From the IMG/VR virus record IMGVR_UViG_3300032516_000004, positions 96,001 to 160,000 of that record: DNA of 64,000 nucleotides; one strand, given 5' to 3'. How positions within the stretch are numbered: the first letter of the stretch is position 1; every line of letters begins with the position of its first letter. Under the pieces are notes generated by a model. It saw only the letters and a program-made list of their open reading frames with translations. It was not told the DNA's origin and ran no database searches. The position numbers and the translations under genes are program-made. Of this stretch, positions 56,525 through 64,000 are shown in pieces. The DNA comes from a virus.

Positions 56525-56713
56525 ATGATTTCCATGCCAATTACGGCTGACATATTATTAGCATTACTCGCAAAAATAGTGGCAAGATATCCTAACGCAG
56601 AAGTCAAGTCTGTCATTATATGGCCTAATCACTGGCTTATGTTTGTGGTTAATAATGAAATAGTCGCTAAATTATGCGTTGAAACTGGCGAGATAAAATG
56701 GTCCGTAAAATAA
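56525..56713 (+). CDS. Hypothetical protein
   Basis: 62-aa ORF. Confidence 0.4.
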   Translation: MISMPITADILLALLAKIVARYPNAEVKSVIIWPNHWLMFVVNNEIVAKLCVETGEIKWSVK

Positions 56714-57054
56714 CATTGACCAAACAACAATTTAAATTGGCCCGTCGTTTACGAGGTCGAGTTAGCAGTCAAATAAGACGTATCACCAAAGGTAAATGTA
56801 AAGCTGGCTCTGCGGTTAGTGACCTCGGGTGCTCTCTTAAGTTTCTCAAAGAATACCTCGAAAAACAATTCCAACCTGGCATGATTTGGGAAAACCATGG
56901 TTTATATGGATGGCATATAGATCATATTAAACCATTAGTCGATTTTGATCTTACTGACAGAGAGCAATTCTTACAGGCTTGCCACTATACAAACTTGCAG
57001 CCATTGTGGGCCAAGGATAACACGAGTAAGTGGATTCGACATGTCAAAAAATAA
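56698..57054 (+). CDS. HNH-like endonuclease
   Basis: GMIWENHG..WHIDHIKPL..FDL...CHYTNLQPLWAKDN. Confidence 0.8.
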   Translation: MVRKITLTKQQFKLARRLRGRVSSQIRRITKGKCKAGSAVSDLGCSLKFLKEYLEKQFQPGMIWENHGLYGWHIDHIKPLVDFDLTDREQFLQACHYTNLQPLWAKDNTSKWIRHVKK

Positions 57055-58646: not shown

Positions 58647-61600
58647 ATGTCCGTAATATTTACGTCTGGTGAACCACAAATGTGGTTAAAAACTTGCGGG
58701 TGTCAAAATCCAGCAATTTATTGGAGCAGTGATTTTAATGCCAGAATTTGCGGTAATTGTGGTATGGTAATTATGGAAAAGCAGGGCGAAGAAGTCAAAA
58801 TTGATTTTGTGCACTTGGTTGTTCATACCCACCTAAGTTTTCTGAAGGCAACATGCAAAATTGAGGATTTAATTAATAAAGCCAAAGAATATGGTATGTC
58901 AGCTTTGGCCAAGACAGAATTAGGAAATTTATGTGGCGCACCGTCTTTTGTAAAAGAATGTAAAGAAGCTGGTATTAAACCTATTTTAGGTACCACATTT
59001 AATACAAAAATTGGTGAAATATTTCATCCTATTACTATTATAGCCACTAATCATGCGGGGTATAAGAATTTAGTGCGTCTTAATACGTTAGCATGGCAAA
59101 TTAGGTTTGGTAAGGAACACGGTCCGTCAATACAAATAAATGATATTATTAGTTCAGATGGCTTAATAGCCATTATTGGAGTAGAGCAATCTGGCCTGGG
59201 ATTCGAATCACTTGTTACCATGTTGGCGGGTAAGATACAGCCGACATTAGCAGCTACCTGGTACAACCAACAAGATAATGATAATTTAGCAATATTAAGA
59301 GTGGTGGCTGATAAGCTACATTTACCAGTTGTTGCCACTAATAATGTACGATATGTAAATCAGTCGGATCATGACGCATATAAAATAGCACTTAAAATAG
59401 GACACTACGATTATTTACTTCAAGATCCTGAATATTATTTTAAATCACCTGCTGAGATGGCCCAACTACCATTTGATGAAGAGTGGTATCGAAATACAAT
59501 TCGCATAGCTGATTCGGTACAAGATTATCAGATCATCAACAAGGAATTTATTGTACCAACCTTTAAGGATCAGAACGGTGAGTGGGGAATAGAAGAGTCA
59601 TTTGGAAAATTACAAATAGAAACCTGGAACGGGTTGGCTGCAAAAGGCTTAATTGATAAGCCAGAGTACATTAAGAGACTCGAGTATGAGCTTGACGTAA
59701 TTAAGAGAAAGAAATTTGCTAGTTACTTTCTAATCATTGCTGAGATTGTTGATTATATTAAATCCAGAGGTTGGCTATCTCCTTTTGGCAGGGGATCTTC
59801 TTGCGGAAGTATGATTTGTTATTGTCTTGATATTATAGCCATAGACCCTATTAAGTGGAGCATACCATTTGAACGATTTATTAATGAAGGTCGTATTGAT
59901 TTACCAGACATTGATACCGATATCACACAAGAAGGTCGCGGCGACGTATTAAAACATATTGCTGAAGTACATGGACATGATCGTGTGGCACAGATCGCTA
60001 CTTTTCAGACCATGGGTCTTAAGGCATCGATTGATAATGTAGGTAGAGCATTAGATGTTGCGTTTGTACAAAATAGAGAGCTACGCAATAAAATTCCTGA
60101 AGAGGTCGAAGAAATTGATGATCTATCAGACGATGTGAAGAAGGAACTCAATACAGTTAAGGGGTGGGCTGACAACGCTAAGTCTCTGTCTGGTATAACG
60201 AAGAATTTTGGTGTACACGCTGCTGGTATCGCAATCGCCAATAATCCAATAGGTGATTTGGTGCCACTATTGCCTGAGATTGATGGTGTTCAGGGTGTTC
60301 AATATGATATGAAAGACCTAGAAATACTTGGTCTATTAAAACTTGATATGTTAGGTTTGCGAAATCTTGATGTTATTCAAAATACCTTAGCCATAATTAA
60401 ACAGGTTCATAATGTAGACATTGATGTTCATAATCTTCCGTTAGATGATAATCAAACATATGATATGATATCTACTGGAGATTATGTTTCAGTATTCCAG
60501 CTTGATTCGCCGGGTTACAGGAAATTAGCTCGTCAACTTAAACCAGATAAATACGAACACATCATGGCCTTGAATGCCCTGTTCCGTCCAGGGCCACTTG
60601 GTGGTGGTATGACAGATGAATATGTTGAGAGAAGACATGGACGTAAACCTTCTGAGAGCATGCATCCATGGTTAGATGAAGATTTATCAACAACTTATCA
60701 GCTTATTGTATTCCAGGAGCAACTGTTGGCTTTAGCAAAGAAAATTGCTGGTTTTAATGGTGTTGAAGCAGATAAATTTAGACATGCCGTAGGTAAAAAG
60801 TCACAGGTAGAATTTGATAGGGCCATGTCTAAATTTAAAGACGGCGCTTTGAATAGAGAAGGTCTAATCCCTCCACCTGGATGTGGTAAATCTCTTGAGG
60901 CTTGGGTGGATGATCTTATAAAGAAAATATCCGGTCATGCACGTTACAGTTGGAACCGAGGGCACTGCCTGGATGGAAGCTCGTTAGTGTTAACATGTGG
61001 TCGTGGGTTGGTTCCAATTAAATATATAAATATCGGAGAAGAGGTTTGGTCAATTAGAGAGAAGACTGGAGATATTTTTAGAAATAGAGTTATGAATGTT
61101 ATTAACAATGGTAGGCGCGATACTGTGCGTGTTAGATCCAGCGATGGTAGAGAGCTTGTGACCACATCTAATCATAGGTATTTTACCTCCAAACAACAGT
61201 ATAAACACGCGTCTGAGCTGAACTATACTGATAGCCTGAAGATGCTTGATAAGGGGATTTTTAGAAGACATTTCAACATCTTTGTGACATCTATTACAAA
61301 CCGTAACAAGGTTCCATTCGTCGTCAGCCTTTACAATTTCATATGGTATAATGTGGTGAAGGCTAAGTCTTTTTTTGGTTCCACAAAAGACGCACATACA
61401 CCAATCTCGTTCAAGAAGTTTATATCTAAGAGATCTGCTAATTTTCCTAGTTTTTCGTATTTTAATACCAGATCGTCCATCTCTGAAGAACTTATAAATA
61501 CTTCTGGGATTAATAAAGATCTTTCTTTCAGCCAGTCTCCTAGAGATTGCAATTTGGCTTTTGTACCCCATACTTCTTATTTCAAGGATTGCCTTTCTTA

Positions 61601-63266
61601 CTTTTGGCGTAATTGCATAAACGCGGTTACCACTCAGACCACACTCTTTGATAAATCTGGAGAGGGCAGCGGGGCTAGCTTTAAATGGAAGTTCCTCAAG
61701 TATATTCTTGCTGCCAAATCCCTGTGCGTGCAGCTTCCTAATCAACTTTTCATGTTTATAATAGGGGTTCCGTTTTCTATTGCATATGATGCAGAGGCTA
61801 TTGTTTTTGGCCGTTCTGTGAACCGTAATCTTTTTACGGCAGTCACCGCATCTGATACTCTTTGTATTCTTGGACCTGTTAAGACATCTGGGGCAATGAT
61901 AGATAGGGATATTATTAGGAGTGACGAAGATATTGGAACATTTAACACAGACTACTTCAATCTCTTTCATATAAAACCTCTGGAACAAAAGGATATTACC
62001 GACGTTACTTTTAATTCTATCACACCAGAATCAAATCGTGAAGTCTGGGATCTTACCATGGAACAAGACCCAAACTTTATAGCTAATGGTTTTGTAGTTC
62101 ATAATTCAGCGGGTTACGGAATGATTACGTATGTTACTGCATATCTTGAGACCCACTATCCGGCTGAGTATTATACTACTCTTTTAGATTCAACTGATAA
62201 AGCTGACAAGATCACTACATTAATGCGTGGTATTATGCATAAAAATTATGCGGTAGTTCCACCCGATGTAAATGAGTCTGGTGTAGGGTATGCCACTAAC
62301 AATAATGTTATTTACATGGGGCTTGGTTCGGTAAGAAATGTTGGCAATTCAGCGGGTGAGATTGTTGAAGAACGTGATCGAAATGGTAAGTTTGGGTCAT
62401 TTATTGAGTTTTGTCAACGTTTGTCGTCTGTTAATAAAACAGCAAAAATAAATTTGATAAAAGCCGGTGCATTTAAGTGGGATAAATCACTATGTGATCG
62501 AGATAAAGCCGATAATATTGACGTTATTAATAAGGCCGTTAGACGTAAGAACAAAAAATTTGATGGCACTAAAGTAGCGCCCATTGAGATAGCCACTGAA
62601 TGTTACATTACGGGTATCGATTTCACCGATATTCAACGGCAGCAGAATGAACGAGAAGTACTAAATTCATTTATTACTGGTCATCCAGCGGCAGTTTATC
62701 AACGTCTTGCCCCGTATTTGGAAAGAGCAGACTCTCATGTTGTGTGCCCGTCCATGATTAAGGACTGTCAAGTTGGAGAAACGGTATTGTTGGTTGGCAT
62801 GGTTGACACAATAAATAAGAAATTCATTACTAAAGAAGGAAGGAATCAGGGTAATCCTTATTTAGTGGTACATATTAGTGATGAACGCGATTCAACAATG
62901 ACTAATATATGGTATCCAATGTGTAATGATATGGAAAAAATATTAGTACCTGGACAAGTTGGTATGTTTGAGTGTATAACTAGGGCAGATAAATTTAGAG
63001 AAGGTAGAATATCGTTGTCAGTTAAACATGCTGTTATGTTAACTCATGGTTTACCAATACAAGGAATTTTTGTAAATAACGGTCATGCTCCAGAGGCCGT
63101 GTTAGCTAAAATAGGTGGCATGCTAAATCAGATTATCGATGTTGGTAATAAAAAATATGCCTCTATACGAGGTAGAATAACTGTAAATCCAGATGTTCTT
63201 GAAAATGCAGCTCACGAATTTGATGGTGTTAAATTTTTAATCTGTATGGAGGCGTCAGATGGCTAA
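58647..63266 (+). CDS. dnaE: DNA polymerase III alpha subunit (family C), intein-containing
   Basis: PHP domain (FVHLVVHT), RGSSCGS..Y.L.I, PDIDTD, HAAG, LKLD.LGLRNL, VFQLDS, RPGP, YQEQ-like FQEQ, YP.EY, PPDVN.S, C-terminal OB fold. Confidence 0.95.
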   Translation: MSVIFTSGEPQMWLKTCGCQNPAIYWSSDFNARICGNCGMVIMEKQGEEVKIDFVHLVVHTHLSFLKATCKIEDLINKAKEYGMSALAKTELGNLCGAPSFVKECKEAGIKPILGTTFNTKIGEIFHPITIIATNHAGYKNLVRLNTLAWQIRFGKEHGPSIQINDIISSDGLIAIIGVEQSGLGFESLVTMLAGKIQPTLAATWYNQQDNDNLAILRVVADKLHLPVVATNNVRYVNQSDHDAYKIALKIGHYDYLLQDPEYYFKSPAEMAQLPFDEEWYRNTIRIADSVQDYQIINKEFIVPTFKDQNGEWGIEESFGKLQIETWNGLAAKGLIDKPEYIKRLEYELDVIKRKKFASYFLIIAEIVDYIKSRGWLSPFGRGSSCGSMICYCLDIIAIDPIKWSIPFERFINEGRIDLPDIDTDITQEGRGDVLKHIAEVHGHDRVAQIATFQTMGLKASIDNVGRALDVAFVQNRELRNKIPEEVEEIDDLSDDVKKELNTVKGWADNAKSLSGITKNFGVHAAGIAIANNPIGDLVPLLPEIDGVQGVQYDMKDLEILGLLKLDMLGLRNLDVIQNTLAIIKQVHNVDIDVHNLPLDDNQTYDMISTGDYVSVFQLDSPGYRKLARQLKPDKYEHIMALNALFRPGPLGGGMTDEYVERRHGRKPSESMHPWLDEDLSTTYQLIVFQEQLLALAKKIAGFNGVEADKFRHAVGKKSQVEFDRAMSKFKDGALNREGLIPPPGCGKSLEAWVDDLIKKISGHARYSWNRGHCLDGSSLVLTCGRGLVPIKYINIGEEVWSIREKTGDIFRNRVMNVINNGRRDTVRVRSSDGRELVTTSNHRYFTSKQQYKHASELNYTDSLKMLDKGIFRRHFNIFVTSITNRNKVPFVVSLYNFIWYNVVKAKSFFGSTKDAHTPISFKKFISKRSANFPSFSYFNTRSSISEELINTSGINKDLSFSQSPRDCNLAFVPHTSYFKDCLSYFWRNCINAVTTQTTLFDKSGEGSGASFKWKFLKYILAAKSLCVQLPNQLFMFIIGVPFSIAYDAEAIVFGRSVNRNLFTAVTASDTLCILGPVKTSGAMIDRDIIRSDEDIGTFNTDYFNLFHIKPLEQKDITDVTFNSITPESNREVWDLTMEQDPNFIANGFVVHNSAGYGMITYVTAYLETHYPAEYYTTLLDSTDKADKITTLMRGIMHKNYAVVPPDVNESGVGYATNNNVIYMGLGSVRNVGNSAGEIVEERDRNGKFGSFIEFCQRLSSVNKTAKINLIKAGAFKWDKSLCDRDKADNIDVINKAVRRKNKKFDGTKVAPIEIATECYITGIDFTDIQRQQNEREVLNSFITGHPAAVYQRLAPYLERADSHVVCPSMIKDCQVGETVLLVGMVDTINKKFITKEGRNQGNPYLVVHISDERDSTMTNIWYPMCNDMEKILVPGQVGMFECITRADKFREGRISLSVKHAVMLTHGLPIQGIFVNNGHAPEAVLAKIGGMLNQIIDVGNKKYASIRGRITVNPDVLENAAHEFDGVKFLICMEASDG
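61050..61970 (-). CDS. HNH endonuclease encoded antisense inside the DnaE intein
   Basis: N-terminal CxxC fingers (CVKC, CPRC, CGDC, CIIC); RKISRSLRYKLLERDWCMCVFCG...LSLHHIIPY...EWNLVTVCNRCH; GAGG SD 6 nt before ATG 61970. Confidence 0.88.
   Translation of the reverse strand: MKEIEVVCVKCSNIFVTPNNIPIYHCPRCLNRSKNTKSIRCGDCRKKITVHRTAKNNSLCIICNRKRNPYYKHEKLIRKLHAQGFGSKNILEELPFKASPAALSRFIKECGLSGNRVYAITPKVRKAILEIRSMGYKSQIAISRRLAERKIFINPRSIYKFFRDGRSGIKIRKTRKISRSLRYKLLERDWCMCVFCGTKKRLSLHHIIPYEIVKADDEWNLVTVCNRCHKDVEMSSKNPLIKHLQAISIVQLRRVFILLFGGKIPMIRCGHKLSTIAGSNTHSIAPTIVNNIHNSISKNISSLLSN
62014..62042 (-). promoter_or_regulatory. Candidate promoter for the antisense HNH gene
   Basis: Minus strand TTCACG-17-TAGAAT with extended TG, about 43 nt upstream of ATG 61970. 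Confidence 0.45.
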
Positions 63267-63565: not shown

Positions 63566-64000
63566 ATGATTAAATGTAATAGATGTGGTATTATGAAATT
63601 ACGACGCGAACTTGTAAATAGCAAACAGCGATCAAAGGGTTATAGACCCTTATGTAAACAATGTTATAATAAACATAGACGATTAGTTTGGCGACGATAT
63701 GCTGGTTTGGTTAGGAAAGCTATTTTGAAGTATTTACAAAAACACCCGTGTGTTGATTGTGGTGAGACTAATCCAATTGCCTTAGAATTTCATCATTTGA
63801 AGAATAAAAAATATAATATAGCTCCATTAATTGGTAAAGGATGTAAACTTTCACGTATTATGAGTGAAATTGCTAAGTGTGATGTAGTTTGTGCTAACTG
63901 TCACAAGAAAAGAACTGCCAAACAACAAAATTGGTATAATATGAAAACTAAGAAGTGCTGTAATTGTAAAGAAATTAAATCAGTAAAGCTATTTAATAAG
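63566..64000 (+). CDS. HNH endonuclease, 3'-truncated by the window edge (not in the ORF track)
   Basis: MIKCNRCG...HPCVDCGETNPIALEFHHL...EIAKCDVVCANCHKKRT; frame open to the window end. Confidence 0.85.
   Translation, partial: MIKCNRCGIMKLRRELVNSKQRSKGYRPLCKQCYNKHRRLVWRRYAGLVRKAILKYLQKHPCVDCGETNPIALEFHHLKNKKYNIAPLIGKGCKLSRIMSEIAKCDVVCANCHKKRTAKQQNWYNMKTKKCCNCKEIKSVKLFNK

Follow-up and report, generated by a model that had tools for sequence, protein, structure and literature searches.

The dnaE locus and its antisense gene

The subject of this study is dnaE, the gene of DNA polymerase III alpha, of a phage recorded as IMG/VR virus record IMGVR_UViG_3300032516_000004. We analyzed positions 96,001 to 160,000 of this 177,941-bp record, a 178-kb phage genome. 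This whole stretch of 64,000 nucleotides is called the window in the following, and positions refer to it unless stated otherwise. The dnaE gene carries an intein, and the strand opposite to the intein encodes a complete putative HNH homing endonuclease (Table 1). Pfam recognizes PHP, DNA_pol3_alpha, finger, HHH_6 and Intein_splicing in the DnaE precursor, the latter with 58 bits (cut-off 35.8). The gene is single-copy in the phage genome.

The blocks of a class 1 intein are present in the translation, as aligned with 10 relatives, namely C1, T67-x-x-H70, VWDL, VVHN and a serine as +1 residue (62106-62108). The insertion motif is WNRGH/SAGYG, with the slash at the insertion point. A phmmer comparison finds the Ssp and Npu DnaB mini-inteins 6frg, 1mi8 and 4o1r with E values of 1e-8 to 9e-8. 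The N and C parts align separately, and the alignment of the C part begins at query residue 341 (nt 61971). AlphaFold assigns confidence values (predicted local distance difference test, pLDDT) of 76-89 to intein residues 1-96 and of 72-91 to residues 340-368. The intact motifs and the sole dnaE copy suggest that this class 1 intein splices in cis.

The HNH gene and dnaE are aligned codon against codon (61986-58647 = 3 x 1113). The HNH start codon is the complement of the intein codon immediately before the C-terminal splicing domain, and the TGA stop codon at 61050-61052 is the complement of the TCA codon of intein Ser29. Across positions 61053-61970 the three plus-strand frames contain 0, 13 and 41 stops and the three minus-strand frames 0, 9 and 42, and only the codon-aligned frame pair is open. 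GC and AT skew invert over the HNH gene.

The encoded protein consists of a double zinc ribbon with four N-terminal CxxC pairs, helices resembling a helix-turn-helix (HTH), and the HNH core. The core is matched by Pfam HNH (PF01844) with 33 bits (cut-off 21.4, E 6.6e-8), and all 12 family members have a match that exceeds this threshold. In the structural model the core reaches a pLDDT of 80-91, and residues 263-282 stay below 50. The top Foldseek matches are HNH domains (Cas9 HNH, McrA, Cap5 and Gme HNH) with probabilities of 0.97-0.99, all at E >1e-3 and thus short of significance. An initial annotation of the window had proposed that the nuclease was synonymously remodelled to keep the polymerase frame open while its Cys/His motifs were kept. 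These motifs are indeed kept: the core columns are invariant across the 12 sequences of the family, save N220, which is either Asn or Asp.

Table 1. Features of the dnaE locus (window positions; minus-strand genes are written from start to stop)
Feature	Position	Strand	Remarks
dnaE (DNA polymerase III alpha)	58647..63266	+	1539-aa precursor, no internal stops
Class-1-type intein, 380 aa	60966..62105	+	Cys1 (DnaE aa 774) to His-Asn (aa 1152-1153)
Intein N-terminal splicing domain, residues 1-97	60966..61256	+	DnaB mini-intein alignment to ~91-96
Sense-strand linker, intein residues 98-335	61257..61970	+	Antisense read-through of HNH body
Intein C-terminal splicing domain, residues 336-380	61971..62105	+	Directly after complement of HNH ATG
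Putative HNH homing-endonuclease gene, 306 codons + TGA stop	61970..61050	-	Codon-aligned antisense to dnaE
HNH catalytic core, aa 193-233	61272..61394	-	C193/C196, H205-H206, N220, C225/C228, H229; Pfam match 193-231
Double-coding zone, intein residues 30-97 (+) and HNH aa 238-306 (-)	61053..61256	both	Both strands avoid TTA/CTA/TCA
Candidate ribosome-binding site GAGG	61977..61980	-	6 nt upstream of HNH ATG, in Pro-Leu codons of intein C-domain
Sigma-70-like match TTCACG-17 nt-TAGAAT, extended TG	62014..62042	-	9/12 consensus positions

A 12-bp palindrome, TGGAAYRTTCCA, precedes the HNH gene in 6 of the 8 relatives L015-L022, roughly 15-25 nt before the ATG. It translates into W-N-(I/V)-P from either strand and could be a putative regulatory site for the antisense gene. 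The window holds only the half site GTTCCAG (61983-61989). The first half of the palindrome, TGGAAY, also matches the codons for Trp-Asn in the WN motif that directly precedes the point of intein insertion.

Codon choice on the two strands

In a codon-aligned antisense register only the codons TTA, CTA and TCA become stops on the opposite strand, and all three can be replaced synonymously. Because the frames of dnaE and the HNH gene are aligned in this manner, these three codons on the minus strand would be TAA, TAG and TGA on the plus strand; they are called forbidden codons in the following. As the stop-forming codons are synonymously replaceable, this register is the sole antisense register which keeps both proteins without mutual sequence constraint.

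In the 237 codons from the start Met through the HNH motif the leucine codons are CTT (10), CTG (3), CTC (2) and TTG (1), exactly as counted in the initial annotation, and none of the 18 serine codons is TCA, which had been claimed as well. The full open reading frame of 306 codons contains 24 Leu and 27 Ser codons and still no forbidden one; the Leu codons are CTN (N, any base) in 22 of 24 cases and TTG in two. By a crude call of open reading frames (ATG starts, at least 100 aa, greedy), the phage genome uses TTA for 29.5% and CTA for 14.6% of its leucines (together 44%) and TCA for 24.8% of its serines. Thus 11.5 forbidden codons are expected in 237 codons and about 17 in 306 codons. Given the amino-acid sequence, the probability of finding none is 5.5e-7 and 4e-10, respectively. 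Not one of the 17,882 sliding windows of 237 codons in the genome is free of forbidden codons, and the longest free run in any other gene of the genome is at most 166 codons.

The avoidance also sets the gene apart from five other endonuclease genes of the same genome, in which 59 of 130 Leu and Ser codons are forbidden versus 0 of 51 in the nested gene (Fisher 2.3e-11). For the HNH gene at 63566 the initial annotation had counted about 6 TTA among 11 Leu codons; six TTA codons are there, the Leu codons within the window number 12, and the whole gene uses TTA for 11 of 19 leucines. A general bias against A-ending codons was ruled out, as the share of such codons in ten other amino-acid families is 0.42 in the HNH gene and 0.41 in the exteins.

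The lack of forbidden codons in the HNH gene and the open dnaE frame are one fact in two wordings. Additional information comes from the other strand. HNH aa 238-306 are encoded by 69 codons beyond the HNH motif, and these codons lie opposite to the N-terminal splicing domain. In eight lineages (see below) the plus strand under this 3′ end of the HNH gene has 0 forbidden codons among 76 Leu and Ser codons versus 29 of 57 in the remaining intein. The third-position divergence of the plus strand is 0.49 in the double-coding zone versus 0.56-0.62 elsewhere. The intein is recoded for the nuclease as the nuclease is recoded for the polymerase, and the constraint is reciprocal. The first 24 of the 69 codons match a C-terminal motif of the split-gene relatives described below. 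The 45-residue tail of the HNH protein is antisense to the catalytic N domain of the intein and would be guarded by the codon choice of the intein itself.

Contiguous, split and shortened relatives

A query with the intein and linker part of DnaE matched full-length DnaE proteins (1510-1587 aa) in which the linker is covered, as well as forms with shorter inteins. The DNA of the DnaE matches, two IMG/VR contigs and one metagenome contig gave ten further lineages with GC contents of 31-53%. All ten have an uninterrupted dnaE and a codon-aligned antisense open reading frame of 303-314 codons, which is 42-59% identical to the HNH of the window and contains no forbidden codon. In their own exteins TTA and CTA make up 25-81% of the Leu codons. 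None of the ten nested HNH genes had been annotated by a gene caller. An assembly artefact was rejected since the layout is seen in 11 independent assemblies. Among the Leu/Ser columns conserved in at least four lineages, 29 of 38 use more than one synonymous codon, and 0 of 218 codons are forbidden. Thus the arrangement is no recent accident, as had been supposed: 11 diverged lineages keep both frames open while these 29 columns have switched codon.

An alternative would be a filter that acted on arrival only, when an HNH gene which happened to lack TTA, CTA and TCA, for example from a GC-rich donor, landed recently and brought its composition along. Such an origin is in line with the relatives of 49-53% GC, where forbidden codons are rarer (P of zero forbidden codons 2e-4 for L020), and with leucine codons that are dominated by CTN and not rich in TTG, as if TTA codons had never been many. 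The other A-ending codons of the HNH gene, however, are at genome level, hence the local composition has been taken on. In addition, zero forbidden codons in 11 lineages with nearly saturated synonymous sites, the frequent codon changes at conserved Leu/Ser columns and the forbidden codons of the closest homologues (see below) argue against inherited composition. The filter perhaps explains the origin; the maintenance and the reciprocal avoidance in the intein it cannot explain, and as a full account it is very unlikely. The proposed remodelling of the nuclease stands in part: selection on both strands is supported, but a recoding from a TTA-rich free-standing ancestor is not. The CTN-dominated leucines fit a gene that was never TTA-rich at least as well.

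The substitutions point to the frame that is under selection. In the HNH body the amino-acid identity is 46% in the HNH frame versus 25% in the dnaE frame, that is, in the linker. The HNH codon positions 1/2/3 differ by 0.42/0.35/0.64 at the nucleotide level, as compared to 0.41/0.28/0.62 in the exteins, and the most variable codon position of the linker is its first. This pattern fits selection on the HNH frame. Together with the zero forbidden codons in 11 lineages and the mirror avoidance on the polymerase strand it supports the dual-strand selection suggested in the initial annotation. One could argue that only dnaE is selected and that the minus-strand frame is the relic of a dead endonuclease, open by chance or recency. 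Mini-inteins and remnant inteins show that loss of the HNH does occur, and a conserved ribosome-binding site or promoter was not found at the gene. A dead relic, however, would gather plus-strand TTA, CTA and TCA codons, which are stops of the HNH frame, in the linker, and there are none in about 305 codons of each of the 11 lineages. Its catalytic Cys/His columns would hardly be invariant, third-position-dominated divergence and the higher identity single out the HNH frame as selected, and the intein codons avoid truncating the HNH. We hold a dead gene for most improbable.

The frame identity, the divergence pattern and the AlphaFold confidence also bear on the linker. For its 238 residues the pLDDT is 22-37 along the whole length, and no match to Pfam or the PDB was found. 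Because of these three lines of evidence the linker need only stay open, and the HNH is the conserved protein; the linker has no conserved protein sequence of its own. We also considered that residues 98-335 form a functional in-frame domain, so that the region would fully code for two proteins. The conserved intein length (371-388 aa among the lineages) and a WN(I/V)P motif which recurs near the linker end in relatives could be taken in this sense. The length conservation, however, follows from the HNH gene and the motif is the DNA palindrome mentioned above, whereas a functional domain is difficult to reconcile with an identity of 25%, a most variable first codon position and the missing Pfam and PDB matches. 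An in-frame linker domain was rejected for its low identity and low pLDDT, and there is only a very slight chance that it exists.

A HMMER search of 1.8 billion representative proteins with the HNH found remote matches only (best E = 2e-10), mostly to the HNH core. The nearest called homologues have 23-31% identity, and none is free-standing. Three of them (P0001, P0014 and P0030) align with the HNH from the HTH region to the shared C-terminal motif; on their contigs each HNH gene lies antisense between two genes and contains 12, 15 and 21 forbidden codons, respectively, at 32-39% GC. The initial annotation had considered that free-standing homologues might share the avoidance, which would make it an inherited compositional trait. 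Because the closest called homologues carry 12-21 forbidden codons at similar GC, the avoidance is not such a trait. A close free-standing relative of the HNH was not found. The phage record collection gave no match to the dnaE DNA or to the HNH protein, nor did a word-based protein search and a scan of viral contigs with the HNH alone. A profile of four distant HNHs gave just generic HNH cores in the viral contigs and two proteins in the protein collection, and a scan of metagenomes with an alignment of 10 HNH sequences added one new lineage.

In the relatives L001-L005 dnaE is split into two genes at essentially the same site. The HNH gene is codon-aligned with dnaE as in the window, and 23-28 codons at its 3′ end overlap the N-terminal intein half (IntN). 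In L004 one gene encodes the N part of DnaE with IntN, and the other the C-terminal intein half (IntC), with its own ATG, and the C part of DnaE. A stop ending IntN and an own start of IntC are found only in the distant relatives L001, L002 and L004. The dnaE of the window has neither, and the Met that starts IntC in the split forms is absent at the matching position. In L001 IntN and IntC still share a reading frame, and 24 codons separate block F from the complement of the HNH ATG, a spacing also found in the window. Frame and spacing fit descent from a contiguous form, although chance is possible (1 in 3 for the frame).

It might be asked whether the dnaE of the window also acts as a split gene with trans-splicing halves, its open frame being incidental. 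All nearest called HNH homologues lie between split dnaE halves, where the first antisense stop terminates IntN and IntC starts from an ATG of its own. The 1539 codons of the window gene, however, have zero stops, the IntC start is missing, and an incidentally open frame would have a probability of 1e-7 to 1e-10 and would have to recur in 10 other lineages. A split gene in the window is thus barely conceivable.

The trees of HNH and exteins conflict. The window groups with L016 in the HNH tree and with L021 in the extein tree, and approximately unbiased tests reject the alternative groupings with p = 0.013 and 0.0015 (HNH data) and 6e-86 and 3e-8 (extein data). Mini-inteins (P0156, P0163 and L023) and a remnant form (P0162) branch from within the alleles that carry the HNH. 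The mini-intein L023 retains about 24 linker residues which can be aligned with the antisense reading of the 3′ part of the HNH gene, and this suggests a deletion derivative. The tree conflict and the nested mini and remnant alleles support horizontal movement of the HNH. Homologous inteins occupy three insertion points within four codons of one DnaE motif, WN/C, GH/C and GHS/C or GHA/C, and the +1 residue is Ser or Cys according to the insertion point (window 60954-60968; L016, L020, L021, L023 and L001). Conflicting trees, nested short forms and a sliding insertion point are the pattern expected of an active homing element, for which cleavage is predicted.

The order of contiguous and split forms does not follow from the HNH trees, where the two are separate clades or a polytomy, and the exteins of the split forms are on very long branches. 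We favor the contiguous form as the first one because a split gene with 12-21 stops has no selectable intermediates on its way to an open frame, and because the reverse step needs one silent mutation and an IntC start. The contiguous form may have originated in a genome of higher GC content, in which an antisense frame stays open at little cost. From any Leu or Ser codon of the HNH gene, one synonymous mutation would suffice to create a dnaE stop. One silent change in the HNH gene plus an IntC start would convert the cis-splicing intein into a trans-splicing pair, and once split, the codon constraint would be gone and TTA, CTA and TCA codons could flood in (compare the 12-21 in L001-L005). That the contiguous antisense-HNH intein is the precursor state of naturally split dnaE genes is a tentative idea, to which we give somewhat worse than even odds. 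If true, it would offer a concrete one-way path to gene fracture and split inteins, unlike the published model in which the invasion breaks the gene at once.

Some observations concern the neighborhood of dnaE. The HNH gene at 63566-64000, which the initial annotation had used for comparison and which extends to 64366 in genome coordinates, contains a tandem duplication. Its two nearly identical units have CxxC pairs, a EFHHLKNKKYNIA stretch and a CHKKRTAKQQNWY ending, and Pfam gives only a sub-threshold match to DUF7685. A small HNH-like open reading frame with the motif HIDHIKPL (56698-57054) lies 1.6 kb upstream of dnaE, which is thus flanked on both sides by endonuclease genes. In relatives, signs of mobile nucleases also adjoin dnaE (L017:1-100 and L018:6123-6821): a 662-aa ThyX with a faint LAGLIDADG match, possibly another intein, and an endonuclease VII gene directly 3′ of dnaE. 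The open stretch of the dnaE strand in L046:2696-8572 has 1959 aa, about 400 aa more than in other relatives; the extra length may be a second intein or a fused neighboring gene.

Interpretation and comparison with known systems

Neither frame is interrupted, the avoidance is both specific and reciprocal, the HNH frame is conserved in 11 lineages, and the HNH and extein trees disagree. We therefore suggest, with a probability of roughly 85%, that dnaE contains a cis-splicing intein whose endonuclease slot is filled by a complete HNH gene on the opposite strand, and that both frames are under selection. Expression and homing could proceed in the following steps. The ribosome would read dnaE through the unstructured linker of 238 residues, the antisense counterpart of the HNH. 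Both halves of the splicing (Hint) domain would then fold together and splice out themselves and the linker, leaving a polymerase of 1159 aa. The HNH would be made separately from an antisense transcript starting in the region of the intein C-domain. Finally, it could cut the intein-less dnaE of co-infecting relatives, and repair would copy the intein together with the HNH gene.

Several points weigh against this proposal. Splicing across a Phe/Ser-rich linker of this length is taken for granted. The expression signals are not convincing: the GAGG upstream of the HNH gene is not conserved in most relatives, and the region has 6 sigma-70-like matches versus 4.6 expected in shuffled sequences, no better than chance, so that conserved expression signals of the HNH, be it a promoter or a ribosome-binding site, were rejected. 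The C-terminal 45 residues of the HNH are poorly modelled and lack a counterpart in the split-gene relatives. The probabilities of zero forbidden codons in the single lineages, from 2e-4 (L020) to 3e-20 in the eight lineages tested, assume independence and the lineages share ancestry, though their synonymous sites are near saturation. Moreover, A-ending codons of the plus strand are generally depleted under the HNH 3′ end (0.25 vs 0.42), so that part of the reciprocal signal is due to a broader constraint. The general depletion fits a constraint from the HNH first positions, and with a correction for it P of the reciprocal absence remains at about 3e-10. That an essential gene is selected against stops is trivial as such; not trivial are the intact HNH and the reciprocal avoidance.

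The proposed arrangement is similar to the cyanobacterial DnaX intein, where the nuclease derives from an overlapping open reading frame and the in-frame region has no fold (Gorbalenya 1998 via bioRxiv 10.1101/2025.01.02.630785; bioRxiv 10.64898/2026.09.14.751524). The Synechocystis/cyanobacterial DnaX intein is likewise a contiguous intein in a replication gene, with an overlapping nuclease frame under frame-dependent purifying selection. It differs by its LAGLIDADG nuclease and cellular host; here we deal with an HNH in strictly codon-aligned antisense orientation in a phage dnaE. The DnaX frame is described as antisense in one of the preprints and as +2 frame in the other (bioRxiv 10.1101/2025.01.02.630785; 10.64898/2026.09.14.751524). 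The codon signature of the stop complements and the reciprocal signature in the splicing domain were not found in the two preprints as far as their text was searched.

Inteins with antisense LAGLIDADG or Vsr-like genes are also known from actinobacteriophages (bioRxiv 10.1101/2025.01.02.630785). The authors propose that they originated when a free-standing endonuclease invaded an intein, and they point out that annotation pipelines miss such genes. In that survey the HNH occurs in frame only, and here it is antisense. The hosts there are GC-rich and an open antisense frame is cheap; at the 31-53% GC of the present lineages the avoidance comes at a cost and can be measured. In addition, the nuclease family studied here has split-gene relatives.

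The split relatives L001-L005, in which dnaE is broken at the intein and a free-standing endonuclease gene lies between the split-intein halves, resemble the fractured genes of Dassa et al. (2009, PMC2677866). These authors predicted that HNH genes could fracture genes in such a manner. Their loci consist of three open reading frames on the same strand with a spacer and GIY-YIG or Vsr-like nucleases, whereas in L001-L005 an antisense HNH overlaps IntN. The dnaE of the window, unlike those loci, is not fractured. In canonical HNH inteins (Dalgaard et al. 1997) the HNH sits in the same slot between the splicing halves, but there it is an in-frame part of the intein polypeptide, whereas the present HNH is a protein of its own, encoded by the opposite strand. 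In the literature searched we found no published description of an antisense HNH in an intein. The layout as such is known, and the antisense-HNH dnaE intein, which has split-gene relatives, is a variant of it that has seldom been documented.

In summary, the locus is an unusually clean natural case of a protein pair encoded on opposite strands, where the constraint can be measured in both directions. The genomes are AT-rich, and the three forbidden codons would otherwise be the commonest Leu and Ser codons. The nested HNH was absent from the protein databases searched and was found only via the DNA of the relatives, thus the layout is probably under-counted in phage annotation. The family offers new candidate split inteins for protein engineering. 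Finally, contiguous, split, remnant and mini forms of one family at the same dnaE site make models of the origin of split inteins and of the homing cycle testable.

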